From positions 1 to 41,317 of the forward strand of contig JBAYVE010000011.1 in the NCBI GenBank assembly GCA_041674765.1: a stretch of 41,317 bases of DNA. Reading direction: 5' to 3'. Made by a program: the position numbers and the translations under genes. This document shows positions 11,921 to 27,163 of this stretch, piece after piece (the first letter of the stretch is position 1; each line of letters opens with the position of its first letter). Origin of the DNA: Patescibacteria group bacterium. Its GTDB lineage: Bacteria; Patescibacteriota; UBA1384; XYA2-FULL-43-10; 1-14-0-10-43-13. Under the pieces are notes generated by a model. That model saw nothing but the letters and a program-made list of their open reading frames with translations. It ran no database searches and was not told where the DNA came from.

Positions 11921-11948
11921 TCGTATAGCGGCTATTATGCGACCCTTC
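11921..11948 (+). pseudogene. 5' fragment of tRNA-Gly (equivalent to nt 8-35), lacking the acceptor 5' strand
   Basis: 28/28 identity to 11985-12012 of the intact tRNA. The match ends exactly between anticodon nt 35 and 36. Confidence 0.7.
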
Positions 11949-11977: not shown

Positions 11978-12052
11978 GCGGGTATCGTATAGCGGCTATT
12001 ATGCGACCCTTCCAAGGTTGAGATGCGGGTTCGACTCCCGCTACCCGCTCCA
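11978..12052 (+). tRNA. tRNA-Gly (anticodon UCC), CCA encoded
   Basis: Acceptor GCGGGTA/TACCCGC. Anticodon stem CGACC/GGTTG with loop CTTCCAA. T-arm GCGGG-TTCGACT-CCCGC. Near-identical in layout to the E. coli glyT-type tRNA. Confidence 0.9.
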
Positions 12053-12074: not shown

Positions 12075-12115
12075 CAAGGTTCTAGATGCGGGTTCGACTC
12101 CCGCTACCCGCTCCA
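12075..12115 (+). pseudogene. 3' fragment of tRNA-Gly (equivalent to nt 36-76 incl. CCA), with a 1-nt indel in the anticodon stem
   Basis: CAAGGTT(CT)AGATGCGGGTTCGACTCCCGCTACCCGCTCCA is a direct copy of 12013-12052. It starts exactly where the 5' fragment ends. Confidence 0.7.
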
Positions 12116-12314: not shown

Positions 12315-13673
12315 TTACCTCAAGCTGATTTTTCTGTCATTCAGGATGATCTTAGCGTTCAGGCAGGATAATAGCTCTCGTTTTTCTTCTTTTGTTCCAT
12401 TTTTGAGCAGATATTTGGCGAACTCTCGGGGATTGATCTGAGGTAGCATCATGTCTTTGCTGATCGCCGAATTCAGCACTCCTTGGGTAAAGTTCTGATA
12501 TCTATAGACCTCCTGCCTAATTCTCTCATGGGCTTCGATCCTCTCAATCGGTATATGGTCAATAATTTCGAGCAATTGTCCGAGGAGTTCGTCTTCTCTT
12601 ATGTATGGGTTCTTGCAAACCAGGTTCCTCGCTTGGGTGCAGTGATAGTAGATATATACCCTCGAAGTTCCATTCTTGAACTTTTTGATCTTTCTCTCTG
12701 CTGTCACCCCAGAGCCGCAATAGCCGCAAGTTAGTAGTCGATTAAAGTTGAATTCGATCGTTCCTGGCTGTGATTTCGGAACAACCGCCAATCTTTCCTG
12801 AACATCCTCGAAGAGTTGCCTTGAAATGATCGGCTCGTGATGGGCGGTATACCAGACACCGCTATTCTTGGGATATTCATATATTCCGCAATAATAAGGA
12901 TTGTTTAATGTCCGATAAATCGAGCTTAAGGTCATAATTTTGCCCGATCTTGTCTGAAAACCCTTGTCTATAAGCCAGTGATAGATATCTCTTCCGCTCC
13001 AGCCGTTAAAATATACCTTTTCAAACACCTCTTTGATTACAGGGGCTCGTACGGGGTCGAGAACTATCGTTCTCATGCCCCTTGGGGAAGTTAAATCCGG
13101 TTCATAGCCAAGAGGTGCTTTTGTTGGTCGATAACCCATCTCGCATTTGGCTTTCATGCCCCTTTTTACATTTTCCCCTCGGTGGTCGTTTTCCAGCTTG
13201 GCTTGCGAGCAAAGAATCATCAGAAGGAACTTTTCGTTCGGTGAATTTGAGAATCTTTGTCCGTGAGTCCGTATCTCTCTTAGGCACCCATTGTCCATTA
13301 GATCTACGACCGACCCAAGGTCGCCGGCATTTCTGCTCAACCTGTCGGGAGCCCAAGACAAGATACCATCAAACTTTTTGGCAGCAAGATCCTTGATGAG
13401 CTGGTTAAAAACTGGCCTCTGGCTCGACTGCTTGGCCGAGTGGCTCTCTTTTCGAATGTCGGCGATCAGCAGGTTCTCTTTCTGTGCCTGTTCGAGCATC
13501 TCCTTTATCTGGGAATCAATCGAAAGTGCCTGCCTTTCGTCATCCTCGCTCGATTTTCTAGCGTAAAGGCAATACCGGACCGGAAGCTCCTTGGCCTCAG
13601 CTTTGTTCACTGGTTTACCACCAATCACCTGTGGTAATACGATCGGTGTTGTATTAGTGTAGCTTACATCCAT
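12315..13673 (-). CDS. large serine recombinase (resolvase-type catalytic domain + recombinase domain + zinc ribbon)
   Basis: N-terminal RYCLYARKSSEDDERQALSIDSQ is a serine-recombinase catalytic motif. C-terminal CGYCGS...CTQARNLVCKNPY is a Cys-rich Zn ribbon. 452 aa. Confidence 0.85.
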   Translation of the reverse strand: MDVSYTNTTPIVLPQVIGGKPVNKAEAKELPVRYCLYARKSSEDDERQALSIDSQIKEMLEQAQKENLLIADIRKESHSAKQSSQRPVFNQLIKDLAAKKFDGILSWAPDRLSRNAGDLGSVVDLMDNGCLREIRTHGQRFSNSPNEKFLLMILCSQAKLENDHRGENVKRGMKAKCEMGYRPTKAPLGYEPDLTSPRGMRTIVLDPVRAPVIKEVFEKVYFNGWSGRDIYHWLIDKGFQTRSGKIMTLSSIYRTLNNPYYCGIYEYPKNSGVWYTAHHEPIISRQLFEDVQERLAVVPKSQPGTIEFNFNRLLTCGYCGSGVTAERKIKKFKNGTSRVYIYYHCTQARNLVCKNPYIREDELLGQLLEIIDHIPIERIEAHERIRQEVYRYQNFTQGVLNSAISKDMMLPQINPREFAKYLLKNGTKEEKRELLSCLNAKIILNDRKISLR

Positions 13674-13760
13674 TTGTCCCTCCTCCCTCGGTTAGCTAGT
13701 TAAGCAAGAGGGACAATACCGCCAAACCCATCTAAAGTCCAGCGATTTTTCGACGTAAAT

Positions 13761-14901
<1,141 letters not shown>

Positions 14902-15225
14902 AAAACATATGATTTATATAAGGGTTTTTACGAGCTGATTGATCACTTTCCCAAAAAGTCTCGGGAAGTACTTATAAATAAAATAGAGGTGCTAATTCTT
15001 GAGCTTCTGGAATTACTTTCATCAGCCGAATTTTCTCCTGCAAGCACTAAAATCCAGTCGCTGAGTCAGGCTAGTATCAAGCTTGATTTCTTAAAGCTGC
15101 TCTTCCGGATGACGTATGAATTCAAAATTATTAACCAGCCAAAATATTTGGAACTAGAAAAGCATCTCCAAGAAATTGGAAAGATGCTTGGTGGCTGGAT
15201 CAAGTCCCTTAGAGGATAAAGCGAT

Positions 15226-15350
15226 ACTACCACGGGACACCGAGACGGAGCCGAAGTTCGGATTGGCATTGTCGGGATTGTTGTTGTCGAGCTTCGGATC
15301 GTCGTCGTTGAGGTTCAGGTACGGAACGTTGCCGTTCTCGGTGACCGCAC
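15226..15350 (-). repeat. DGR template repeat (TR), sense on the minus strand
   Basis: 125 bp matching 15707-15831. At the mismatches this copy carries A on the minus strand, mostly in AAC codons. The 3' segment CGGCTCCGTCTCGGTGTCCCGTGG is adenine-free and identical in both copies. Confidence 0.85.
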
Positions 15351-15685
15351 AATTTTTGCTGATCTTCTTCTGTTTCTTCGGATGGTTTTAAATCAAAACA
15401 TCCTGTAGCCCGACTTCGGGCAATTTTTTAAGCGAGCGATATTATTCTCGACATAAAAATCAGCAAGGAGTATCTGCTTTATCCTTTTTCTTGACAAGCC
15501 ATAGCCGGTCAAGGAAATGCAGGGAAACAGAGATTTCTCTCGCTTAAGCCGTAGCCGAAGGCAAGGTACTCTCATATTCTAAAGAACATATTATTGGTAA
15601 AAAGAAAAGCGGCCGCTGCGAGAATTCGCAACGACCGCCTGACGGCGGGTAACCAAGGGGACAATGATCCGATAGGACCAAAGCC

Positions 15686-16330
15686 TCAAGAACCCCAGGG
15701 TAATTGACTCCCACGGGACACCGAGACGGAGCCGTAGCCCGGATTGGCATAGACGGGATTGTCGTCGTCGAGCTCCGGATCGCCGTCGCCGAGGCGCAGG
15801 TACGGAACGTTGCCGTACTCGGTGACCGCACCGGGGAAGTCCATGTAGGATTTCTGCAACTGCGGTTTGCCCCAGTAGAGGAAGGCAGTGAGGCCATCCT
15901 TGGGGATCCCGAGCTGCTCGAGCGGGTCGTGGCTGGCACGGATATCCTTGGGAGCACGGCCTTTGTATTTCTGACCGAGCTGGCCCTGCACGATGCAGAG
16001 CCCTTCCGGAGTCGTCACGCCCTCGAAGAGAGTGAAAGTATCCGGATCGGCCCAGATGTTGACGCCACCGGCCTCGCAGAGGAAGCGATCTCGTACGCCG
16101 TAGTGTACGAGCCAGACTTCATTGAGACCGATGCCGGCCAGTTCGACCGAATAGCCGAACTGCTGTACCAGGTTCATGGCGTCATCGAGGAACTTGGCCT
16201 CTTCGACGCCGACCTCTCCGTGGATGCCGTAGGCGATCAGGCAACGCGCCTGCGCTTCGAGCACTTCGGACAGGTTCACCGGCAGAGCCGGCGGAAACTG
16301 CAGAGCAGGGATCACAACCTGTGTACCCAT
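15686..16330 (-). CDS. DGR target protein with C-terminal variable region (C-type-lectin/FGE-like fold suspected)
   Basis: GC-rich ORF. Start taken at MGTQVV (AAGGAG 6 nt upstream) rather than the ORF-track 16375. The VR encodes ...EYGNVPYLRLGDGDPELDDDNPVYANPGYGSVSVSRGS at the extreme C-terminus. Confidence 0.75.
   Translation of the reverse strand: MGTQVVIPALQFPPALPVNLSEVLEAQARCLIAYGIHGEVGVEEAKFLDDAMNLVQQFGYSVELAGIGLNEVWLVHYGVRDRFLCEAGGVNIWADPDTFTLFEGVTTPEGLCIVQGQLGQKYKGRAPKDIRASHDPLEQLGIPKDGLTAFLYWGKPQLQKSYMDFPGAVTEYGNVPYLRLGDGDPELDDDNPVYANPGYGSVSVSRGSQLPWGS
15707..15831 (-). repeat. DGR variable repeat (VR) at the 3' end of the target gene
   Basis: Differs from the TR at 13 TR-adenine positions (to C/G/T), plus one non-A difference (15254/15735) and one at the repeat edge (15229/15710). 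Confidence 0.85.
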
Positions 16331-16543
16331 GGTGACTCCTTTTGGTGCCCACCGGCTCAATGTCCTTTTGGGCATAGCTGGTTACCTTATTGAAAGATAA
16401 ACAAGTATGCCCAAAGCAAACTACAGTTCCATAATTATGAAACGCTAATTATTATACCATAATGATAAAAATAAATCAATAGTTTGAGCGTATTTATGAT
16501 CAGTAATCTTTTAATAGTACACCTATTATGCTAAAGTATAAGT

Positions 16544-16681
16544 GTCTGGATCTACAACAAGTTAATGGACACTTCTGTGCATTGCAGAGTGATTATGCCC
16601 GAAAATAAGGGCAATCACTCGAAAGACAACGGGCATAACCTGTTGTAGGTCCAGACAACCTAGAGTGGTTGTCCTTTTTGT
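16544..16681 (+). ncRNA. structured RNA-like element (three nested stems) ending in an intrinsic terminator
   Basis: 16-bp outer stem 16544-16559/16641-16656. Inner stems CACTTCTG/CAGAGTG and TTATGCCCG/CGGGCATAA. Then GACAACC-TAGAGT-GGTTGTC + CTTTTT. Identity unknown. Confidence 0.3.
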
Positions 16682-16787
16682 TACTGCAGGATTGACTAAT
16701 TCTAGGCCAAGAAAGCTTTACTTAATTCCGAATGTAAGCTAAAACACCAAGGATCCATAGAAATAATAGTAATTAAAAGGAGACATC

Positions 16788-17402
16788 ATGAAAAAATGTC
16801 CTAAGTGCAAAGAGGAGATTGCAGACGGAGCAATCAAGTGCAAGCATTGCGGTGCAGATCTTAGAAACTGGTTTGCGAGACACAAATTCCTGACGGGATT
16901 TATGGTCTTGATCGTCCTTATTATCATTATCTCAGTTGCTTCAAGCGGAGGAAAGGGAAAGGATAACACAAACACTTCCGGATCGTCCTCCACTGCGACA
17001 GCTGATACAAACAAAGAGTATAAAGTTGGTGATACTATCCAGCTCAATAACCATTCGCTTAAAGTGAATAGCGCAAATAAAAACTACAAGAGTGGTAATC
17101 AGTTCGAGAAGCCACAAGATTCCAATAATTCTTTCGTCGTTGTAAATATTACTCTCGCTAACACGGGAAACGACGACCTATCTGCTAATCAATTTGGCTT
17201 CAAACTGGAAGATGAAACTGGAACTCAACGAAATACTACATTTCTGAGTACTGTCGATAACGAACTACAATCAGTGACATTATCGAAGGGCGGTACAACG
17301 TCAGGGAACTTGGTATTTGAGGCGAAATCTGGTAGTTCGACACTTAAGCTACACTATCAGGGAGGAATCTTCGGGGGACAGGAGATAATTATTGCTCTCT
17401 AG
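16788..17402 (+). CDS. zinc-ribbon / TM / DUF4352-like surface protein
   Basis: N-terminal CPKCKEEIADGAIKCKHCG is a zinc ribbon, followed by one TM helix, an S/T-rich linker and a beta-rich C-terminal domain. RBS AAAAGGAG upstream. Confidence 0.65.
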   Translation: MKKCPKCKEEIADGAIKCKHCGADLRNWFARHKFLTGFMVLIVLIIIISVASSGGKGKDNTNTSGSSSTATADTNKEYKVGDTIQLNNHSLKVNSANKNYKSGNQFEKPQDSNNSFVVVNITLANTGNDDLSANQFGFKLEDETGTQRNTTFLSTVDNELQSVTLSKGGTTSGNLVFEAKSGSSTLKLHYQGGIFGGQEIIIAL

Positions 17403-17411
17403 ATAACCAAA

Positions 17412-17439
17412 AGGCAGGCGAGATTTTTATTGCCTGCCT
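17412..17439. terminator. hairpin AGGCAGGC...GCCTGCCT between convergent genes
   Basis: 8-bp perfect stem with a 12-nt loop. A T-run follows on the minus strand. Confidence 0.5.
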
Positions 17440-17446
17440 ATGGTTG

Positions 17447-19006
17447 TTAAGAGAACTCACTTTTCGTTTCCTCATCAATAAACTTTGCCCAGTCTCTGCG
17501 AGATCGGCACTCGCTTGGAGATTGCGGAGTCCTGTTTCCGGTATTCATAGCAAAAGCACTTTCTGCTTTGATGATCATACAGCCATAATTATTATCCCTT
17601 TTGTCGATTAACATCATTATCAAGGTGGTAAAAGCGTCAACAAGGTCGTCATGGGTTGTTGTACCAAATTCGGTGATCTGCTCTATTAGCTCTTTGCAGC
17701 CGTTGACGGGGAATAAAACCTCACCAGAATGAATTAAACTTGAGCAGATATTTAATCGTGACCGTTTATCCATACTTCCGACCTTCATACCTTCGGCTCG
17801 GTAGTGGTCATTGTGAAGTAATTGTGTCAGCCATCCCTGCAACATAACATCCTCAACAAATATTCTGGTTGAATATCGGCCCCCATAACTGCCAATTAAT
17901 CCCTTGATAACATCCTGTGTCTCGTTAATTTTCATTCGTTCATTGACCGTATTAGGAAGAATATATATTCGGCGTTTCTCTCCATACCCATAGATTTTGG
18001 CACTGACAAGTGCCGTATAGTCGGCCGCATCTTTCTGAGAGATTGCCAAATCCACGCCAATTGCATACTCGATTGGTTCATTACGGAGAGATGTCGGCAA
18101 CGGATCGTAATATTTTATTGCATCCTTACTGACGACTGGCTCTGAATCGTCGATTATTCTGAGCAAATATTCCCGATACCAAGCAAACTTGTCGCCAACG
18201 CTCATCCTCTCCTGCTCGATTGCTTTCATATCTGGGTATTTTCCTGGCCAGGCAATCTCATTATTCTCGCTAAGAAGAGGAAACATTTTGATTACTCCTG
18301 ATCTTTTGCCGTTTTCGATATCATGCTTCATCGACATGATAAGCGAGTCCTGATGAAGAAGATTCCCGACAATTACGAATTTGGTATCTCGATCACCCAG
18401 GGGTAGGACTTCGCTAGTAAACCATTCTCTCGTATTTTTTCTCGATTCAGCAGTTTTGACCGAAGCCATATTTTCGATATCATCAGCGATAATCAAGTCG
18501 GGGCGATATCTGCCAAACCGTATACCACGAATAGCTTGTTCTCGGGAAACCGCAATAATTTTGGCGTTGTATTTGGGAAGAATCAAACTACAAGAATTCC
18601 ACTCATCCTGTTCTTTGAACGGGCCTAGATCCCTTTTTAACAATTCATTTGTTTCAAGCTCAGTCTTCAGATTTTTAAAATGAACGCCAGCTTGTTCCTG
18701 GGTTTGACTAATAATAACGACAAACTTCTTCTGCAATCTGCCTAGTATTGCCCAGATCGGATAACTTAGAGTCATCAAAGTACTTTTGCCTGACCCTCGA
18801 AAACTGCAAATAACAGCTAATTTGATCCTTTGATCTTCGGTAATTCCAAACATTTCTCGCTGGAAATTTGCCATCGCATACTGAACAAAACTATGAAAGT
18901 AAGTATGGAAAAACCAGATATGGCTGGTTCTTGTCGTTTCAATTCTGGTTGATTGCTTCTTAATTATTTTGTCGACCAAATCCTTATTTCCCATCTTGGC
19001 CTCCAT
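17447..19006 (-). CDS. phage terminase large subunit (TerL)
   Basis: 519 aa. Walker A SFRGSGKSTLMT in the N-terminal ATPase domain and a C-terminal nuclease-like region with conserved acidic residues. Typical length and layout. Confidence 0.85.
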   Translation of the reverse strand: MEAKMGNKDLVDKIIKKQSTRIETTRTSHIWFFHTYFHSFVQYAMANFQREMFGITEDQRIKLAVICSFRGSGKSTLMTLSYPIWAILGRLQKKFVVIISQTQEQAGVHFKNLKTELETNELLKRDLGPFKEQDEWNSCSLILPKYNAKIIAVSREQAIRGIRFGRYRPDLIIADDIENMASVKTAESRKNTREWFTSEVLPLGDRDTKFVIVGNLLHQDSLIMSMKHDIENGKRSGVIKMFPLLSENNEIAWPGKYPDMKAIEQERMSVGDKFAWYREYLLRIIDDSEPVVSKDAIKYYDPLPTSLRNEPIEYAIGVDLAISQKDAADYTALVSAKIYGYGEKRRIYILPNTVNERMKINETQDVIKGLIGSYGGRYSTRIFVEDVMLQGWLTQLLHNDHYRAEGMKVGSMDKRSRLNICSSLIHSGEVLFPVNGCKELIEQITEFGTTTHDDLVDAFTTLIMMLIDKRDNNYGCMIIKAESAFAMNTGNRTPQSPSECRSRRDWAKFIDEETKSEFS

Positions 19007-19415
19007 CCCTAGTGATTAAGGAGGCCAGTTCCAGTGCTTTTCTGATATTTTTCTCCTCTTCTTTACTCAGTTTGTCCTGTTTGATCTCCAGATTTCCACT
19101 GACCTCAAGCTTGTTTTTATAGCTATCGTGTCTGTGATTGAGCCAATACATGCAGGCAGTCAAATTTTGTTCCTTCATGGCTGTAATTAAGGTGCTTTCG
19201 GCTAGATCGTTAATAAGCAAGCATCCTTCCTGGATTGCCCGATCACATTTCTCGGTGAATTTTTTACTCTCTCGCCGCCAACGATAATAGCTGTTTCTCC
19301 CAACCCCAACTCTATTGCAGGTAACCTCAATAATCGGTGTCCGTTTCAGTTGTTCAATTATTTGTTCCTGAGTTTTCGCTTTTCTGAGCTTGATTGCATC
19401 ATCTTTATTCGCCAT
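18984..19415 (-). CDS. putative terminase small subunit / HTH DNA-binding protein
   Basis: 143 aa, immediately upstream of and overlapping TerL. Basic N-terminus with an HTH-like segment (RVGVGRNSYYRWRRE). Confidence 0.5.
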   Translation of the reverse strand: MANKDDAIKLRKAKTQEQIIEQLKRTPIIEVTCNRVGVGRNSYYRWRRESKKFTEKCDRAIQEGCLLINDLAESTLITAMKEQNLTACMYWLNHRHDSYKNKLEVSGNLEIKQDKLSKEEEKNIRKALELASLITRDGGQDGK

Positions 19416-20763
19416 CTCCCTCCTTGATCAGCTTGGCCTTCTTGCCAAATGTTTTTTCCCAGCGGTTTTTGATTACCTCGGCATAAATAGGGCATTTTTC
19501 CATAAGGTAGCAACGTCTTTGGAGCTTATTCGAGGCAATTAATGTACTCCCACTGCCTCCAAATGGCTCGACTACCAGGTCGCCTCTTTCGGTGAGAACT
19601 TTAACGTACGGTATCAAAATCTCCAACGGTTTAGTGCCAAAGATAATGCCTTGGCCGGAACTTTTTTCATCGGCTGCGTTGAATTCTATGAAGTCAGTTG
19701 GCTGTATCTTCTTGCCCTTTTCATAGCCCTCCCACTGCGGTTTTCCGGAAATCGCATAAAGTGCGGTTTCGTACTCTTCCTGTAAACCGTCCTTTTCCGG
19801 CTCCATATTATATTCAATATCAACGTCGGGTGATGCACCAACCACGGCGATGTCGTGTTTAGAGAAGAATTTGTGCTTGGCAACAAAGCCCTGGTTTCTA
19901 TTGGGAAGATGCCAAACGATCATGTTTTTAACCTTCCAATACTTTTCCATTTCATTCCAGATCGTGCGTATATTTTTCCAGTTTTCGTAAACAATGATTG
20001 AGAAAGATTCCTTTTGAACCTTAGCAATGTTGGCCATCCAAAGTTCCGTAAAATTTTCAGGTAACTCATCAGTACCGATATATTTTCGATTCTTCTTGGC
20101 TCCAAAACCGTCGGTTGGGTTTCCGTGCCTTTTTCCTTGGAGGTAGTTTAAAATGTAGGGTGGGTCAGTCAGGCAGAGGTCTGCCTTTTCACCATCCATC
20201 AGTCTGAGCATATCTTCTTCGATCGTACTGTCACCGCACATTATTCGACTACCATCCAGGTCATAGATATCGCCCTTTTTGAAATTAATTTGATCAATCT
20301 TTAATTTCTTCAGCTCTTTGTCGATGTCAAAGGGCTGATCTTTCATCTCGACTTCAAAAATATCGTCCAGCTCTTCACTGTCGAATCCAATGTCGACCAG
20401 GAAGTTCTCGTCAAAACTGGCCAGAAGATTAAAATCAAATTCACCAGTGTTCTTATTGAGCCGAAGATTAAGCTCTTTTTCTTTCTCAATCTCTGGGATA
20501 TTTACAAAGACGCAGGGTATCTCTTTGATCCCCAATGCCTTGGCTGCGGTAATCCGCATATGTGCCCCAATGACGATGTTTTTTCGATTTGACGCACAGT
20601 TTACAATCGCCGGATCAACAAATCCAAAGCGTGTTAAGCTTTCTTTCAAATCTGAAAGCTGTTTCTCGTTCCATTTTCTCGGGTTATAATCGGCCGGAAT
20701 TAGCTTCCCAACCGAAACATACTCGATCTTGTAGTTTTCTTTAGACATAAAGTCTCCTTTCAA
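19405..20763 (-). CDS. ParB-like nuclease domain fused to DNA (N6-adenine/N4-cytosine) methyltransferase
   Basis: The N-terminus has a ParB-like N-domain (IPADYNPRKW...). The central region has TDPPY (motif IV). C-terminal FGGSGST (motif I) comes after DPPY, giving the beta-class permuted order. Confidence 0.85.
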   Translation of the reverse strand: MKGDFMSKENYKIEYVSVGKLIPADYNPRKWNEKQLSDLKESLTRFGFVDPAIVNCASNRKNIVIGAHMRITAAKALGIKEIPCVFVNIPEIEKEKELNLRLNKNTGEFDFNLLASFDENFLVDIGFDSEELDDIFEVEMKDQPFDIDKELKKLKIDQINFKKGDIYDLDGSRIMCGDSTIEEDMLRLMDGEKADLCLTDPPYILNYLQGKRHGNPTDGFGAKKNRKYIGTDELPENFTELWMANIAKVQKESFSIIVYENWKNIRTIWNEMEKYWKVKNMIVWHLPNRNQGFVAKHKFFSKHDIAVVGASPDVDIEYNMEPEKDGLQEEYETALYAISGKPQWEGYEKGKKIQPTDFIEFNAADEKSSGQGIIFGTKPLEILIPYVKVLTERGDLVVEPFGGSGSTLIASNKLQRRCYLMEKCPIYAEVIKNRWEKTFGKKAKLIKEGDGE

Positions 20764-20961
20764 TTAATTTGCGTTAAATAACAAAAAATCCGCACCATGT
20801 ATGTGCAGATTATCTCTGAGTTCGACCCTTCTCAAATCAAAAAACACATACATTTACCACAACCTTAAAAAGGTTGATCGATTTACGTGTTTTTGATTTT
20901 CTGGGGTTATTCCGTACTCAGCAAAAACGATTTTCTATTAAATTGTAATTTCATTTTACTC

Positions 20962-20990
20962 TTGCCAACTTACTTGTCAAGCAATTATAA
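20962..20990 (+). promoter_or_regulatory. candidate promoter TTGCCA-N17-TTATAA for the NACHT gene
   Basis: Spacing counted directly: 20962-20967 and 20985-20990. Confidence 0.4.
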
Positions 20991-21049
20991 CTTTATCAAT
21001 CGAGCACGAAGTGTTAGGATTAGAATGAGATCTAAATAGGATTTTACGA

Positions 21050-24000
21050 ATGGAAGATCGGTATATAAAACCAAACTTGATGTTATTCAAATCGTTTGAA
21101 GAGTCGGTCAAAGGAGATCTTCTTTTATATTCTCTAACACATGATGACGAGCGAGAAGCAGAATCAGAGAATTTTATTAACTGTCCTCGACGATCATTTA
21201 TTTTAGCCGACCCGGGGTATGGTAAATCTCGCTTTCTAAAAGAAGCCCTATCGAAAAAAAAGAACTCTGGTGGTAGCGGTTTGCTCATGGAACTCAAAAA
21301 TCTTTTACCAGGAGAGATAATTGTTGATGGTCTTACTCGTGTTGCTGGCAGAGAAGGATTAAATACTAATATTGAGAACGATAGCAATTTTTTAGTCTGT
21401 TTAGATGGATTAGACGAAGTTAAACAAGACGATTTGTCGCTATATGTAGAAAAAATTAAGGATTTTGTGGCAACATATGATAAGACGATAATTCTGATTT
21501 CTTGTCGTCAGCTTTTCTTTAAAAAATATGCTGATTTATTTTCTAGCCTCAGTTTCGAGTTCGCTCGTATTTTCCCGTTCACTATTTCCCAAGTAAAAGA
21601 ATACTTAACAGGATATCCGCTCGATAAAAGAATGCTCGATAGGTTAATAAATACCCTGAAATTTGGAGGGAGAGATTTAGTGATTCAGGTTCCGCGATAC
21701 CTTGAGTTGCTTGCCAAATACATTGTAAATAAAAGGTTGGGTGATGTTAATTCAATAACTCGATGCGATCTTTTTGAGTATTTTATATATGGAAAACTTA
21801 GTCTCGAGGATAGAGAAACTAAAGAAATAATCAAAAGGGTGTTAGAAAAATTAGCTCTAATTATGGAAATGTATCAGACTAGCAGCATAACCAAAGACGA
21901 GCTGATGACTTTCTTCGACGATATTAAGTCAGACCTCAAGGTGAACGCTATCCAAAAAATTCCACTCAACACTTTTTATAATAGAACTTTACTAAAAGAC
22001 AATGGCGAGACTATTGAATTTGACAATACCGAGTTCCAAGAATATTTAGCAGCAAAAGAAATCACGAGATTGGGTCATTTCCCGCATACGGTATTTGATC
22101 TTGTTGTAGATCCTAATCTTGGAACTATCCACCCGAGTTGGTTTAATACTCTTACCTTTTTAATCGAGTTACAGCCGAAGATACTAAAGAATGTTCTTAA
22201 TTACGGCCAGGGAAAAGATCCTGATGGCCTACAAGACGAGGACTATCATCGGCTAATTACCAAGGTTAATCTGAACCTTATTCCGACGCAAGATAAGAAA
22301 AAAATTTTTGAAAATGTCCTAGAGTATTATCAGAAGGTCCAACATTGGATAAACTTTGATATTGCTGAAAACTTATCATATTATTACGATGATTCGCACC
22401 AACAGATGCTAAAAAAATATGTAGAGAAGATGCGATATAGTTCAGAAACTCAGAAACTTGTTCAGCGAGGCAATATTGCTCTGATTGTCGGCTTTTTGTT
22501 AGGCGCAAAGCGATTATCGGTAGTTGATATTGGTTACTGGAAAGAGAAATTAATATTTTTTGCCAAGGACAAAAATAAAATTGGCGTACTCCAAAGGCAC
22601 TCATTATTTGCTCTTGAAAAACTAGAAGATGACTCGATTATTAGCAAAGTAAAAAGCGTATGGAGAAGTGGTGATGAGCTAGTCAGTCAAAGATTTCTTG
22701 ATTTTTGTGGTTCTGTAAATCCAAACCATCCCTTGTCTCTAAAAATTTTTATAGATGGCACTAAGAGAAAAATAATTCAAGCGAGATATGGGCTCTACGA
22801 GGTTCGAGAAAGAAAGGCGATATCTAAAGTTATTGGCGCTTTGACGAAGGATGATGTGTTTTTATACCAGTTTCTTGACCAAGAAAGCATTTTTCATGAT
22901 CGTGACCACTTGCTAATCGATAATATTAAAAATGTTCTTGATCGACGGCTATCACAAAAAATTGAGCAGGCAATTCTTGCTTCCTATAAATCAAAATATT
23001 GGTATGAAGCAGAAAAATCAGTTTTTATTTCTAACTTAGCGAAGCTTGTGCTTGAACAGGATAATCAATATTTACATCGACTTACAAAGCAGATCTTTAG
23101 TGATTCAGATTTGCTTAAACATGCTCCTTTTAGTTTCGATCTTCTTTTTTCAATTTTACTCACTGAAAATGATATCAAGGGATTCATAGATGAGGCGTCA
23201 AAATATGAACATGGCAAATGGTTTGCTTGCAGAGTTATGCAACTGATCAAGTTTTCAAAACGAACAGATGCAACCATTCTTTGGGAAGAAGGCAGGGGGT
23301 ATTTAGCGGAGGAATATAAAGAAGTAGAGAAACTCTGGCAAAAAGAAAAGTCTAAGCCGGCAGAAAGTCAAACTATTTATCAAGGATTCTTGACTAAGCT
23401 GGAACCAAAACCAAAAACCTATGATCCTGGTGTATTCGAATTCTATACTAATAATCAAGACCAGATAGATAGAAGCATCACTCAAGATGATAAAAAACGT
23501 CTCACGAAATTAATCACGGGCAGTATTTTTGAAAAATTCGATCCTGCAGACCAATCATTGACTATTACAAAACGAGAGGGTGGGTCAACGTCATATACTA
23601 CTCATTCATGGATATCAGTATTTGGTGATGCAATCGAGGTTGCAGCGAAACTCAATTTAGATGCTGAGAGATATACGAGTAAATTGATCAGCTATATTCC
23701 ATTTTCTTATCATAGTCATTTGGAGGCAATTTTTAGCTTGATCGGAACAAATGAAATAGATAAAAATTCTATCAACCGTTTGCTAAAAGTTTACAAGGAA
23801 AAGAAATCTGATCTCTGGCAACACATGCCCTCCAGCTTTATCCAATTTGTAAGTCGTTATAAAATAGCGCAAAGTGAACCAATTCTAAAAGAATTCATCG
23901 AAAACAAAGAACTCTCAATAAATGATCGAGTATCAGCCCTTGAAGCTCGAGAGTTAGTTTGTCCCGATTGTCCCTATTTAGAAAAAGTTTTCACGGAGAA

Positions 24001-25060
24001 CTTGTCTGCAAATAAAGAACTTGCATATAAGAGTAATGCTCTTTTGATAGAGCGGTATAACAATAAGGATGCAATAAATTGGCTGTTTACTCTTTTAAAA
24101 GATAACGCTAAGACTTTCATTGAGCCAAAAGGGGCTCATTCAGTTGGAGATTTTGAAGATGAGCTGCACCATATGAAATTAGCAAAGCCTCTAATTAACC
24201 TAAAAAGCGAAGAATACATAAATAATTTCTTAGATTTACTAAGCTTTTCCTTTGACCTCAATGACCAAGATCCACAGTATTCGGCATACAGCAATTATAT
24301 TTGGCAAATAGTCAGCAAGTTTTTTGATGGTCTAAAAGAACTGAAATCATATCAGCCGATAAGAACCTTGGAGCAATTTACCAATAAGAACCTGTCTCGA
24401 GGTGGGGCAAATTGGTTCCTAGTAACCGTAGAGGATATAAAGCGTACATTTCTTACCTATTTAGGGAGACCAGAGAACATATCTGATTGCATAAATACCT
24501 ACAATAGCATGAAAGTTAAGCAATATTTAGCAATCACATCGGTTCAGGAATTACATCAAGTAGTTAAGAGTATAATTGAGACCGATCTAAGGGGATGGCT
24601 AGATGGAGAAGGCCGTAAAACTTTTCAGGATGATGGATCTTTTGATAAGGACGGGAAACCAAAAAGACGCAATTTTGAAACAACCGTTCAAAAACTTATT
24701 CTGCCTCAGCTTAAATTATCTTTCCTGCAAAGAGGGATAATGTTAAAGGAGATAAATATTGCTAGAGAACCGCAAATACAGGATGATAGCCGAGTAGATT
24801 TTCTAATCTCATACGGATTCATTGGTCATATGATTCTTGAGGTAAAATTGAGAAGTAATCCTGACTTGCTTGGAAAAATGCATCTGAATCCTTCGTTTAA
24901 GAAATTAAAATTGTACGTAAATTCATATGATGCGAGTTCCGGTATCTTCCTTGTAATAAACGACAAAGAAGATAAACGTCCTGATACATGGGGAAAACAT
25001 CTAGCGAGAATAATCGACTGCTATAACAAAATCGAGAGGATCGAGGTAGTCGGCTTATAA
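21050..25060 (+). CDS. NACHT-type STAND NTPase (1336 aa) with a long helical-repeat C-terminal region; possible C-terminal PD-(D/E)xK-like motif
   Basis: Walker A ADPGYGKSRF and Walker B FLVCLDGLDEV, then ILISCR (sensor 1). The C-terminal VDFLISYG...ILEVKL resembles a D...ExK nuclease core (speculative). Confidence 0.8.
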   Translation: MEDRYIKPNLMLFKSFEESVKGDLLLYSLTHDDEREAESENFINCPRRSFILADPGYGKSRFLKEALSKKKNSGGSGLLMELKNLLPGEIIVDGLTRVAGREGLNTNIENDSNFLVCLDGLDEVKQDDLSLYVEKIKDFVATYDKTIILISCRQLFFKKYADLFSSLSFEFARIFPFTISQVKEYLTGYPLDKRMLDRLINTLKFGGRDLVIQVPRYLELLAKYIVNKRLGDVNSITRCDLFEYFIYGKLSLEDRETKEIIKRVLEKLALIMEMYQTSSITKDELMTFFDDIKSDLKVNAIQKIPLNTFYNRTLLKDNGETIEFDNTEFQEYLAAKEITRLGHFPHTVFDLVVDPNLGTIHPSWFNTLTFLIELQPKILKNVLNYGQGKDPDGLQDEDYHRLITKVNLNLIPTQDKKKIFENVLEYYQKVQHWINFDIAENLSYYYDDSHQQMLKKYVEKMRYSSETQKLVQRGNIALIVGFLLGAKRLSVVDIGYWKEKLIFFAKDKNKIGVLQRHSLFALEKLEDDSIISKVKSVWRSGDELVSQRFLDFCGSVNPNHPLSLKIFIDGTKRKIIQARYGLYEVRERKAISKVIGALTKDDVFLYQFLDQESIFHDRDHLLIDNIKNVLDRRLSQKIEQAILASYKSKYWYEAEKSVFISNLAKLVLEQDNQYLHRLTKQIFSDSDLLKHAPFSFDLLFSILLTENDIKGFIDEASKYEHGKWFACRVMQLIKFSKRTDATILWEEGRGYLAEEYKEVEKLWQKEKSKPAESQTIYQGFLTKLEPKPKTYDPGVFEFYTNNQDQIDRSITQDDKKRLTKLITGSIFEKFDPADQSLTITKREGGSTSYTTHSWISVFGDAIEVAAKLNLDAERYTSKLISYIPFSYHSHLEAIFSLIGTNEIDKNSINRLLKVYKEKKSDLWQHMPSSFIQFVSRYKIAQSEPILKEFIENKELSINDRVSALEARELVCPDCPYLEKVFTENLSANKELAYKSNALLIERYNNKDAINWLFTLLKDNAKTFIEPKGAHSVGDFEDELHHMKLAKPLINLKSEEYINNFLDLLSFSFDLNDQDPQYSAYSNYIWQIVSKFFDGLKELKSYQPIRTLEQFTNKNLSRGGANWFLVTVEDIKRTFLTYLGRPENISDCINTYNSMKVKQYLAITSVQELHQVVKSIIETDLRGWLDGEGRKTFQDDGSFDKDGKPKRRNFETTVQKLILPQLKLSFLQRGIMLKEINIAREPQIQDDSRVDFLISYGFIGHMILEVKLRSNPDLLGKMHLNPSFKKLKLYVNSYDASSGIFLVINDKEDKRPDTWGKHLARIIDCYNKIERIEVVGL

Positions 25061-25074
25061 TTAATGGGAATATT

Positions 25075-25554
25075 ATGAAAGAAGCTGAATTTTTAAGTCA
25101 TGAATTAGAAAGACAACATCAATTATCCTTTCAAACATCGGATTCACTAGATCACAAGGCAGAACAGGCAGTTGTATTTATTGTGGTAATTGTTGGTTAT
25201 CTTCTCAATTTGGGCACAATAAGTTTTCTAAGGAGACCGGAAGGATGGGTCCAGTTTTTTTATGCGTTTGCCCTGCTTGTAATGATCGTTGCCTTTACTT
25301 TGTTAGTGATCGCTTATAGGATTCAAAAAGTTCATATAGGATCAAAACAAGACTATTTGCTCAATACCCTGAAGAATAAAAGTAGTTTTCTTGTTCCGGC
25401 TGTAATATTAGGAATTAAAAACAGCAATGAAAAAATTAAGCAAACAAATGATAAAAAAGCATTGCTAATAAGATGGTCTCATCTTTTTATTATAATCGGT
25501 GTTTCAATAATAGCAGTTTGCGAATTTATATTAAGGAGTCAAAATGCCAAATGA
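25075..25554 (+). CDS. small 3-TM membrane protein co-operonic with the NACHT NTPase (candidate effector)
   Basis: 159 aa, starting 15 nt after the NACHT stop. Three hydrophobic helices (VVFIVVIVGYLLNLGTI, FFYAFALLVMIVAFTLLVIAY, LFIIIGVSIIAV). Confidence 0.6.
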   Translation: MKEAEFLSHELERQHQLSFQTSDSLDHKAEQAVVFIVVIVGYLLNLGTISFLRRPEGWVQFFYAFALLVMIVAFTLLVIAYRIQKVHIGSKQDYLLNTLKNKSSFLVPAVILGIKNSNEKIKQTNDKKALLIRWSHLFIIIGVSIIAVCEFILRSQNAK

Positions 25555-25639
25555 TCAGGAAGATCAGAGCGCAGAGGATGGAAATAATGATCCATGGGAA
25601 CAAAATCCACCCCTGGAAACTATAGAGAAGGGCAACTGA
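25544..25639 (+). CDS. tiny acidic ORF (31 aa) with a strong RBS, overlapping the end of the TM-protein gene
   Basis: AAGGAG 5 nt before the ATG. Sequence MPNDQEDQSAEDGNNDPWEQNPPLETIEKGN. Coding status uncertain. Confidence 0.25.
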   Translation: MPNDQEDQSAEDGNNDPWEQNPPLETIEKGN

Positions 25640-25785
25640 GTAATAGATTGACCAACCAGGGATTTTAGCGGTAATTACACAGGGATTACACTTTCTCCTC
25701 TACTGGCTGTTGATATATTAATACTATCCACAATGGAATGTATTAATATAAGTTGTTATACTGTGATTACGTTATAAAAACGAAA

Positions 25786-25803
25786 AGAGCCCCGTAGGGC
25801 TCT
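25786..25803 (-). terminator. hairpin AGAGCCC-CGTA-GGGCTCT followed by a T-run on the minus strand
   Basis: Downstream of the HNH gene. Confidence 0.55.
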
Positions 25804-25835
25804 AATCGCTTCTTTTTCAGAGAGTTATGGCTGTG

Positions 25836-26087
25836 TTAACCGCCGTAGCTTTCTGTGTTTTTGTGACACTCTACACACAGAATTTGGCAATTCTGCAATG
25901 TATCAGGACCACCTGCCTCTTGTGAGACAACATGGTGAGCGTGCCATTGTTTTCCGGCTTCACGATTTCTAGGGTCTAAGACCTTATTACATCGGTATCC
26001 GGAATGACCAGAGCAACGTCGTGCGCATTCGCACTTACCGCCAGCTCTCTCCCATGCGTCATTGATGACGCTTTGTGGAAAGGACAT
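25836..26087 (-). CDS. HNH endonuclease
   Basis: 83 aa. Cys pairs plus HAHHVV...GGPDTLQNCQILCVECH, the HNH/Zn-finger nuclease core. Confidence 0.8.
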   Translation of the reverse strand: MSFPQSVINDAWERAGGKCECARRCSGHSGYRCNKVLDPRNREAGKQWHAHHVVSQEAGGPDTLQNCQILCVECHKNTESYGG

Positions 26088-26559
26088 GGTTACTCCAAAA
26101 ACAGATAAGTTTAGGAAGTTGGACTAGGCTTCCTGTCGCTTTCACGACCGTGTCCGTTGCAGTCATTTCTAGCCCAAGATTTACCTAGCGTTACTCCAGT
26201 TGTAAATTATATTGTAAGGTTTACTTTACATTTTGTCAACCTAGAAATAGGGGCAAATTGTGGATATGTTCGGGGTATGTTCGCCAAGGGGGAGGTCTCT
26301 TTTTATACTGTATCATTCTGTATCATTTACTCTCAAAATTCCTACAAAGCAGTTACTGGAAATGGTATCTTGGGTGAGCTATATGGTCTTGCTTTGGCCT
26401 CGTTTTAGCTCAAAGTAGGTTGAAAATGAGGTGAATGTATAGTAGTATAGGTTCCAGAGCATGTAGTTGCTCCAAAATGGTATTTAGGAATTGGTATTTA
26501 GTATTATAGTGCTCACGAATCTTATGCTATATACTGTTACCTAGGTACTATTTATTTAT

Positions 26560-26637
26560 GGCGGCCATAGCTCAGTTGGTTAGAGCGCCAGTTTGTGGCA
26601 CTGGAGGTCGCGGGTTCGAGACCCACTGGCCGCCCCA
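26560..26637 (+). tRNA. tRNA-His (GUG) with encoded G-1 and CCA
   Basis: Acceptor GCGGCCA/TGGCCGC. Anticodon arm CCAGT-TTGTGGC-ACTGG. Extra G at -1 opposite discriminator C. Confidence 0.85.
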
Positions 26638-26719
26638 AAAATCGAATAGTACCTATCCTCTGAGCCGGTAGAATAGAGCGCTAGCCGATGTTCATCGGGC
26701 TCGGTCGAGGACAAAACAT

Positions 26720-26795
26720 GCCTCGGTAGCTCAATGGATAGAGCGCTTGCCTTCGAAGCAAGAGGTTACAGGTTCGACTCCTGTCCGAGGTACCA
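26720..26795 (+). tRNA. tRNA-Arg (UCG), CCA encoded
   Basis: Acceptor GCCTCGG/CCGAGGT. Anticodon arm CTTGC-CTTCGAA-GCAAG. T-arm ACAGG-TTCGACT-CCTGT. Confidence 0.85.
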
Positions 26796-26822
26796 CCTCA
26801 TATTCATTCGGTGTAAACTTGT

Positions 26823-27062
26823 ATGAATAATTTCCATCTGTACATAATCAAATGCAAAGATAATTATCTTTATGTAGGTATTACTGATGATATTGAAAAG
26901 AGAATTAGTCAACACAAAGATGGTTTTTGTCGTAATACCAAGAACAGAGGAATTATTCAATTAGCATATACGGAATCATTCAAAGAAAGATCGGAAGCAG
27001 CTAAGAGAGAGAAAGAAATTAAAGGGTGGAGAAGAGAGAAAAAAGAGCAATTATTGAAATAA
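26823..27062 (+). CDS. GIY-YIG nuclease-family small protein
   Basis: 79 aa. HLYIIKCKDNYLYVGITDDIEKRISQH...RG...EKEIKGWRR is a GIY-YIG (UPF0213-like) domain. Confidence 0.8.
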   Translation: MNNFHLYIIKCKDNYLYVGITDDIEKRISQHKDGFCRNTKNRGIIQLAYTESFKERSEAAKREKEIKGWRREKKEQLLK

Positions 27063-27087
27063 TAGCTTGCTCTGAATGAAATGAAGA

Positions 27088-27163
<76 letters not shown>

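Follow-up and report, generated by a model that had tools for sequence, protein, structure and literature searches.

A candidate defence cassette on a phage-like element of Patescibacteria, pairing a NACHT protein that has a predicted C-terminal nuclease domain with a putative PycTM-like membrane protein and its microprotein

Bacterial NACHT proteins defend their hosts against phage; most of them carry the effector at the N-terminus and some carry it at the C-terminus, after the repeats (10.1101/2022.07.19.500537). In Pycsar, the membrane effector PycTM is activated by cyclic CMP or cyclic UMP (cCMP or cUMP) from PycC and disrupts the membrane (PMC11224242; PMC13069673). Here we describe a locus in which a NACHT-type gene is followed by the genes of a putative PycTM relative and of a microprotein. 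The locus lies in a 41,317-nt stretch from a Patescibacteria group bacterium (contig JBAYVE010000011.1, positions 1-41,317 of the forward strand), hereafter the window, whose positions serve as coordinates throughout. Patescibacteria, the candidate phyla radiation (CPR), are episymbionts with tiny genomes and a poorly known antiviral repertoire. With a little more confidence than doubt, we read the locus as two separable defence-type units that are co-inherited as one cassette on an integrative phage-like element of Patescibacteria. The two units are very likely co-transcribed, and we infer an antiphage function for the locus.

Three open reading frames (ORFs) make up the cassette, all on the plus strand and all at the places where a preliminary description of the window had put them. 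The first (21050-25060) encodes a 1336-aa protein, recognised from the ORF list and its homologues, in which a NACHT module is followed by a helical/HEAT region and a PD-(D/E)xK domain; it is a member of the DUF8371 family and identical to the NCBI hypothetical protein WC107_05970 of an uncultured Patescibacteria group bacterium. The second (25075-25554) encodes a 159-aa protein with three predicted transmembrane (TM) helices, which the ORF list, hydropathy and profile matches present as a divergent PycTM relative. The third (25544-25639) encodes an acidic 31-aa microprotein with a DW motif (MPNDQEDQSAEDGNNDPWEQNPPLETIEKGN), identified as an ORF and by homologous micro-ORFs. The spacing between the NACHT gene and the TM gene is 14 nt, not the 15 nt first given, and the start of the micro-ORF overlaps the end of the TM gene by 11 nt.

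The NACHT module occupies residues 1-440 (21050-22369, +). It contains the Walker A motif PGYGKS at residues 55-60 (DPGYGKS, 54-60), which follows the pattern GxxxxGK[ST], the Walker B motif D119-G-L-D-E123, the sensor arginine R153 and the winged-helix motif EFQEYLAAKE at residues 328-337. All of the motifs quoted in the preliminary description were found in the protein, namely GYGKS (56-60), LVCLDGLDEV (115-124), ILISCR (148-153) and, near the C-terminus, VDFLISYG...ILEVKL (1249-1267). In an alignment of 52 homologues, by which invariance was judged, G56, G58, K59, D119, D122, E123 and R153 do not vary. The signature D[GAS]hDE in Walker B separates NACHT from other STAND clades (10.1101/2022.07.19.500537), and the D-G-L-D-E of the 1336-aa protein is an instance of it. 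Homologues are numerous, with 372 at E<=1e-3, nearly all of them full length (~1310-1450 aa) and 34-47% identical, and many carry precomputed matches to NACHT (PF05729) and to PF28130 (DUF8371). When five were rescanned with PF05729, they scored 38.1 (P0047), 28.7 (P0118), 26.5 (P0069), 26.2 (P0005) and 25.5 bits (P0075), the gathering cutoff being 26.7 bits. Fold comparison also placed the nucleotide-binding, helical and winged-helix arrangement closest to NACHT proteins rather than to other AAA+/STAND clades. Motif, family-level Pfam matches and fold together support the assignment of the 1336-aa protein to the NACHT clade of STAND nucleoside triphosphatases (NTPases), as had been proposed for its N-terminus. 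Six homologues (P0042, P0054, P0064, P0075, P0081 and P0109) form a subgroup with an extra N-terminal helix-turn-helix (HTH) of the MerR/excisionase type (PF12728) before the NACHT module, which suggests DNA binding or autoregulation.

Behind the NACHT module lies a region of ~750 aa. HEAT-type repeats were recognised at residues ~510-614 (22577-22891, +), where the family profile matched alphaRep/HEAT designs in the PDB at E 6e-8 and homologues have HEAT_2 matches; the remainder is helical, with no recognised domain. A PDB sequence search with the single 1336-aa sequence returned nothing, and with the profile it returned only HEAT and generic P-loop matches. We presume that this helical/HEAT region is the sensor. 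The C-terminal domain, at residues ~1205-1336 (24662-25057, +), was modelled confidently with the alpha/beta core of the restriction-endonuclease fold. Four candidate catalytic residues, E1210, D1250, E1264 and K1266, are all invariant in the 52 sequences; E1210 sits in the first core helix (1209-1227), D1250 just before the strand 1251-1255, and E1264-V-K1266 within the strand 1260-1267. The resemblance to a PD-(D/E)xK core that was noted earlier is thus confirmed at the level of the predicted structure and of the invariant E...D...ExK, and the modelled domain keeps every catalytic residue in the window copy. With an effector already built into the NACHT protein, there is no need to cast the TM protein as 'the' effector of the locus.

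On these features, the first unit would act as a single-polypeptide sensor-effector resembling the NOD-like receptors (NLRs). The helical/HEAT region would bind a trigger, probably a phage protein, upon which the NTPase would oligomerise in a nucleotide-dependent manner, as its family suggests. Oligomerisation would cluster the PD-(D/E)xK domains, so that DNA is cut and either the phage is stopped or the cell is killed, by analogy with Avs and bNACHT proteins.

The 159-aa protein was described beforehand as a three-helix membrane protein, and hydropathy indeed predicts three TM helices (residues 33-51, 61-79 and 135-153). Its sole relative in a word-indexed search of 5.8 billion sequences is 73% identical and comes from locus L005. 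An exhaustive HMMER search of 1.8 billion proteins added 33 remote full-length relatives of 136-240 aa, which share a common plan: an N-terminal helix bearing LDxKA leads into TM1-TM2 and a linker, and these are followed by an NxKA motif and TM3. Of the 34 family members, the PADLOC PycTM models match 24 and 19, respectively, and PycTM matches the 159-aa protein itself at 9.4e-5 over residues 10-81. The profile of the 159-aa protein finds P0124 (1.3e-9), P0125 (4.6e-9) and P0153 (8.4e-4), all of which carry PF18967; several relatives have precomputed PF18967 (PycTM) matches, in three cases with normal or weak confidence. Pfam matches to Anthrone_oxy, Bestrophin-like, DUF2207_C and DUF2721, among others, also occur in the family; they are scattered over unrelated TM families and were set aside as composition noise. 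The earlier suggestion of a SLATT-like protein was dropped, as no SLATT family matched the query or the 34 members (Pfam, E<=0.01). Judged from its sequence, the 159-aa protein appears instead to be a divergent relative of PycTM (PF18967) that stands without a cyclase: neither the annotated neighbours in the window nor those in the related loci that have Pfam listings include a PycC.

Locus L005 is informative for the cassette as a whole. This 2-kb contig holds the C-terminus of a NACHT gene, a 14-nt gap, the TM gene, an overlapping 30-aa ORF and then a serine recombinase gene, and its nucleotide identity to the window, ~80%, ends exactly at the stop codon of the micro-ORF. Because L005 reproduces the arrangement and the identity stops at this codon, the three genes move as one cassette. 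Compared codon by codon, the two micro-ORFs show 9 identities, 7 synonymous differences and 14 non-synonymous ones, with the changes gathered in the N-terminal half and conservative around the motif.

With nine acidic residues and one basic residue, the microprotein has a net charge of ~-8, and its ATG is preceded by AAGGAG at a distance of 6 nt. Among nine loci with DNA, a micro-ORF of 29-66 aa with a D-W-[DES] core follows the PycTM-like gene in eight, often overlapping it and with an acidic or polar N-terminal stretch. The tiny acidic ORF with a strong ribosome-binding site in the preliminary description is accordingly a real conserved gene. The motif reads DPWEQNPP in the window, DPWDQDPP in L005, EDWSDNPPP in L079, TDWDQPAG in L080, KDWDAVQ in L081, SDWDRPAG and SDWDKPAG in L082, YDWDNAPG in an uncalled ORF of L093 and DDWKQPD in L094. 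The two L082 motifs belong to tandem micro-ORFs of 62 and 66 aa after one PycTM-like gene (L082:2999-3401). The ATG has a Shine-Dalgarno sequence before it in six loci (window, L005, L079, L080, L081 and the first copy in L082); none occurs in L094, where the 25 nt upstream are AT-rich without a G-rich motif, or in L093, whose ORF lacks an obvious ATG. Identity between the neighbouring TM proteins and that of the window is just 20-27%. At the ninth locus, L078, a different 63-aa Cys-rich/acidic ORF takes the place of the micro-ORF. Degenerate DNA patterns of the motif gave only chance matches in unrelated ORFs of metagenome and viral collections.

The large genes beside these pairs differ from locus to locus. 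The window and L005 have the NACHT nuclease; L080 has a ResIII/DEAD helicase fused to RE_endonuc, at a gap of 3 nt; L082 has an N6/N4 methyltransferase and a DUF8426-Mrr_cat nuclease upstream, with the pair 36 nt after the Mrr-type nuclease; L079 has an overlapping caspase-like protein (Peptidase_C14); and L093 and L094 have no obvious large partner. The large neighbour in L078 had been considered as a STAND NTPase and is actually a protein with TPR and a CHAT/caspase-like domain. Five of the eight TM/micro-ORF pairs thus stand in tight operons with unrelated nucleases or, once, a caspase-like protease, and these tight operons argue for a coupling of the second unit with the neighbouring enzyme. 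The TM protein and the microprotein would form a two-gene module of their own, one not previously described.

The NACHT family was then examined for partners of its own. About 55 of its loci have an intact gene, and in 23 of them a same-strand ORF follows within 120 nt. No conserved partner gene emerged, since these 23 tightly coupled ORFs are unrelated to each other and to the 159-aa protein, the exceptions being one sister-genome pair, one NACHT fragment with a frameshift and one tandem paralogue. By its sequence neighbourhoods, the family seems to behave as a single-gene unit. The TM protein was rejected as a conserved NACHT partner, for it is in none of the ~55 other loci; the absence of the pair from all of them, together with its occurrence without a partner, speaks for the independence of the second unit. 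Some downstream genes deserve mention in their own right. Two tandem NACHT-nuclease paralogues (1444 and 1379 aa) with a 12-nt gap were seen in Lewinellaceae (L054:1612-10133). A soluble helical protein of 177 aa follows the NACHT homologue at L012:10284-10814 (also L003:11856-12389) and has an RNxxxH motif reminiscent of HEPN; another, of 268 aa, does so at L009:10014-10817 (also L001:12032-12838). Both may be alternative accessory genes.

The same observations bear on an explanation in which the three genes form one integrated system, where NACHT senses infection and activates the TM protein as an abortive-infection effector, the microprotein is an adaptor or inhibitor, and the nuclease is a second arm or a DNA-sensing domain. 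The 14-nt gap and the overlapping genes fit such a system, as does the co-inheritance with homology that stops at the micro-ORF stop codon; moreover, the pair stands in equally tight operons elsewhere (3 nt in L080, 36 nt in L082, overlapping in L079), which suggests that it plugs into sensors. Against it stand the ~55 other NACHT-family loci, which lack the TM protein and show no conserved partner of any kind, the intact effector domain within the NACHT protein itself, and the pairs of L093 and L094, where no large partner is obvious. We consider this explanation unlikely. The earlier proposal of the TM protein as an abortive-infection effector of NACHT keeps its basis in a tight, co-inherited cassette, but not in a conserved partnership, and the NACHT protein has a nuclease already.

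In our preferred reading of two separable units, the second is a bicistronic one, made of the PycTM-like three-helix protein and the 31-aa acidic DW microprotein. The activated TM protein would damage the membrane, by analogy with PycTM. As no cyclase is present, the microprotein is the likeliest regulator, whether antitoxin-like or activating, and the unit would be a PycTM-type effector that lost, or never had, control by cyclic nucleotides. More tentatively, and on balance with doubt, the TM protein and the DW microprotein may be a cyclase-less membrane-effector module that attaches to many immune sensors and enzymes, with the microprotein as a switch, and that serves here as a second effector arm, directed at the membrane, of the NLR-like nuclease. 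Its partners would then be the NACHT nuclease, the helicase-restriction endonuclease, the Mrr-type restriction endonuclease, the caspase-like protease and the TPR-CHAT protein, a list we put forward with the same reserve. The microprotein could act, for instance, as a plug of the antitoxin type, and firing of the neighbouring enzyme would lead to its release, degradation or cleavage.

Scanning one genome per species, we found 71 NACHT-family loci or genomes with a patchy distribution over many phyla. Many of them are in Patescibacteria, from Saccharibacteria, Paceibacterota, Microgenomates, Uhrbacteria, Nomurabacteria, Peribacteria and Levyibacteriota; other carriers are Nitrospirota, Planctomycetota, Acidobacteriota, Gammaproteobacteria and cultured Bacteroidota (Pedobacter, Mucilaginibacter, Chitinophaga, Pontibacter). 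A full-length copy that is 24% identical occurs on two Arcobacter plasmids. The family was absent from 50,697 phage genomes and gave one weak partial match in IMG/VR, on which grounds a phage origin of the NACHT gene was ruled out. Neighbours of the homologues include restriction-modification (R-M) genes, a type I S subunit, SIR2, AbiEii-like ATPases, AAA_21/AAA_15, DUF4276, HEPN/NTase pairs, DUF1156/DUF499/SNF2, transposases and recombinases. The placement in defence islands that was proposed for the locus is moderately indicated by the defence and mobile genes near the homologues, and is diluted by housekeeping genes mixed among them; the contexts are thus mixed rather than consistently of the housekeeping kind.

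The cassette lies among phage genes, as the preliminary description had it, with a terminase and a methylase on one side and HNH and tRNA genes on the other. A large serine recombinase gene (12315-13673, -; Pfam), the presumed left end of the element, stands beside tRNA-Gly. It is followed at some distance by genes for TerL (17447-19006, -; Pfam), a TerS-like HTH protein (18984-19415, -; Pfam) of the same element, and a ParB-N6/N4 DNA methyltransferase (19405-20763, -; Pfam) that is divergent from the NACHT gene. Downstream of the cassette come the HNH gene (25836-26087, -), tRNA-His, two tRNA-Arg and a GIY-YIG gene. In CPR loci, a TerL similar to that of the window (42-53% identity) adjoins the NACHT homologue in 11 cases, TerS-like HTH proteins 30-45% identical to the window's stand beside NACHT homologues, and ParB-methyltransferase homologues (27-30% identity) stand beside NACHT-family genes in 7. 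The window recombinase is 48-51% identical to those abutting NACHT homologues in L017, L023, L032 and L034, and one CPR locus also has a 53%-identical reverse transcriptase. Gene orders in the CPR loci look like circular permutations of the window arrangement, and the window TerL is ~25% identical to terminases of Mu-like phages. The element in the window appears to span from the recombinase to the cassette. This shared block of recombinase, TerL, TerS and ParB-methyltransferase supports a cargo position of the NACHT cassette on a phage-like integrative element.

The element recurs as a conserved Patescibacteria element (window 12315-26100; loci L007, L012, L016-L018, L021, L023, L026 and L032-L034) that contains the serine recombinase, sometimes the reverse transcriptase of a diversity-generating retroelement (DGR), a DUF4352 protein, TerL, the TerS-like HTH protein, one or two methyltransferases including the ParB-methyltransferase, and the NACHT nuclease. 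Capsid, portal and tail genes were not recognised between 12.3 and 26.1 kb, where several ORFs lack annotation, and the element may be satellite-like or decayed. No direct repeat pair that would mark attachment sites brackets it; only local partial duplications of tRNA-Gly were found. On either side of the tRNA-Gly (11978-12052) lies an exact copy of part of it, with 11921-11948 equal to 11985-12012 and 12084-12115 equal to 12021-12052, and these copies beside the recombinase could be integration scars.

Such a setting raises the question of whether the NACHT nuclease works for the mobile element and not for the host, helping to maintain the element or to compete with rival elements or a helper phage; the element would then be satellite-like, with a terminase and no virion genes. 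Within the CPR the gene always stands beside the block of serine recombinase, TerL, TerS-like HTH and ParB-methyltransferase in permuted-looking order, and the lack of recognised capsid, portal or tail genes would agree with a satellite. Outside the CPR, however, the family occurs without the element, on Bacteroidota chromosomes, on Arcobacter plasmids and in defence islands; it is absent from phage genomes, and the host as a rule also benefits from defence genes that prophages and satellites carry as cargo. We regard a role confined to the element as distinctly improbable.

The neighbouring methyltransferase invites yet another explanation, an R-M-like pair in which methylation by the ParB-methyltransferase would identify self DNA and the NACHT nuclease would restrict DNA that lacks it, in the manner of MADS or of type IV systems. 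In the window and in 7 CPR loci a divergent ParB-methyltransferase adjoins the gene, among neighbour families N6_N4_Mtase recurs most often (6/143), and PADLOC reported matches to mad2, mad1 and mad8. Most loci nevertheless lack a methyltransferase, ParB-methyltransferases are ordinary phage genes, and the one here lies in a packaging block. MADS needs MAD6-8, and those who described it regard MAD1/2/5 as generic and as a likely source of false positives (10.1101/2023.03.30.534895); the mad8 matches reflect a weak P-loop similarity (E 1e-3 to 4e-6). MADS itself was rejected, as MAD6, MAD7 and MAD8 are mandatory (10.1101/2023.03.30.534895) and only generic mad1/mad2 and weak mad8 matches were present. 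An R-M-like pair seems to us very improbable.

Further features of the window were recorded along with the element. A DGR lies at 13761-16393. The sequence of its reverse transcriptase is broken into two ORFs that overlap (13761-14342 and 14248-14901, -), pointing to a frameshift or a sequencing error; bAvd is at 14869-15219 (+), and a 125-nt template/variable repeat pair (15226-15350 and 15707-15831) is 88% identical, with 13 of its 15 mismatches at T on the plus strand, that is, at A on the minus strand. The variable repeat is at the 3' end of a 229-aa ORF (15686-16375, -), in a GC-rich patch (0.50-0.55 against ~0.40 around it). Between the DGR and TerL, a zinc-ribbon and DUF4352 protein is encoded at 16788-17402, and a Microgenomates element (L003/L012) has a DUF4352 protein at the same relative position. 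The GIY-YIG gene (26823-27062, +) lies between tRNA-Arg(tcg) and tRNA-Arg(tct), near tRNA-His (region 26561-27163); a 49%-identical gene is near the NACHT homologue in L051, and another is on the contig of the TM relative P0153.

The cassette's own promoter, as claimed earlier, is at most a candidate: sigma-70-like sites in the region were no commoner than in shuffled sequence (19 found against 18.5 expected). The 286-nt intergenic region that precedes the NACHT gene and separates it from the divergent gene contains TTGCCA-18-TATAAC (20962-20991, +), which is promoter-like by its match to the consensus alone and which the shuffle-based scan did not list. The terminator scan of the region found nothing above chance.

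Several observations weigh against our reading of two separable defence units. The roles of both units are inferred from sequence. The profile search for NACHT was positive for homologues (up to 38.1 bits with PF05729) and negative for the 1336-aa protein itself, which has no Pfam NACHT match at E<=0.1. The PADLOC check proposed for this protein returned no family match, and on its homologues only the generic mad8/mad1 models matched, weakly. Membership in the antiphage families EruA and HyoA was rejected as well: the 1336-aa protein scored 24.4 bits and 13 homologues, cultured Bacteroidota included, 24.6-48.3 bits (P0047 among them having no match), so that scores of 24-48 bits face equivalog cutoffs of 1000 and 1200 bits. 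The 159-aa protein is itself without a Pfam match, and its PycTM assignment is transitive, resting on scores of a kind that membrane composition can inflate. The evidence for the microprotein comes from nine loci, and fast evolution marks its N-terminal half (14 non-synonymous and 7 synonymous changes relative to L005). Many neighbours of NACHT homologues are housekeeping genes, hence the defence-island signal is only moderate, and a joint function of the three genes would account equally well for their co-inheritance and the 14-nt spacing.

The locus is of interest in several respects. An NLR-type nuclease gene of 4 kb on a conserved element in many CPR lineages suggests that NLR-like immunity is a recurrent, horizontally traded investment in reduced genomes. 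With its order of NACHT first and nuclease last, the family lends itself to asking whether the position of the effector affects NLR-like activation, and DUF8371 has hundreds of members, including ones from cultured Pedobacter, Mucilaginibacter and Chitinophaga. PycTM-type effectors would exist outside cyclic-nucleotide signalling, tied to a conserved acidic peptide of 30-60 aa that gene callers often miss; if functional, the pair would add a microprotein-regulated membrane effector to the defence toolkit.

Compared with known systems, the second unit resembles membrane-toxin/antitoxin pairs and bacterial gasdermin systems in combining a small membrane protein with a tiny regulator, sometimes beside a caspase-like or CHAT protein (L079, L078); for gasdermins the likeness is one of logic, without sequence or fold evidence. 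It is closer to PycTM of Pycsar, with which the membrane protein shares a size of ~160 aa and an N-terminal cytosolic helix with TM helices. Unlike Pycsar, the unit has no PycC, its TM gene is followed by a DW micro-ORF, a feature that we did not find described for Pycsar, and its neighbours are nucleases or proteases.

For the first unit, Avs3 and Avs4 have the nuclease at the N-terminus and TPR-like sensors in the solved examples, and their sequence families differ from the one described here, whose NTPase matches NACHT NLRs better. The NCBIfam models NF058535 'antiphage_EruA' (1318 aa) and NF058534 'antiphage_HyoA' (1430 aa) are of similar length and are matched at both termini in register; with scores so far below the cutoffs, the window protein belongs to a different family with the same overall plan. 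The bNACHT proteins share with it the NACHT module with D[GAS]hDE, the NLR-like fold, and a repeat sensor and a nuclease in one polypeptide. Their tested members are not detectable close relatives, and DUF8371 is an uncharacterised family that is strongly represented in Patescibacteria. Here NACHT is N-terminal and the restriction-endonuclease domain is C-terminal, the reverse of the usual order of effector, NACHT and sensor. For effectors at the C-terminus, Kibby et al. proposed a folding back towards the NACHT ring. Given the C-terminal effectors in the Kibby survey, this architecture of NACHT first and nuclease last is uncommon but anticipated.

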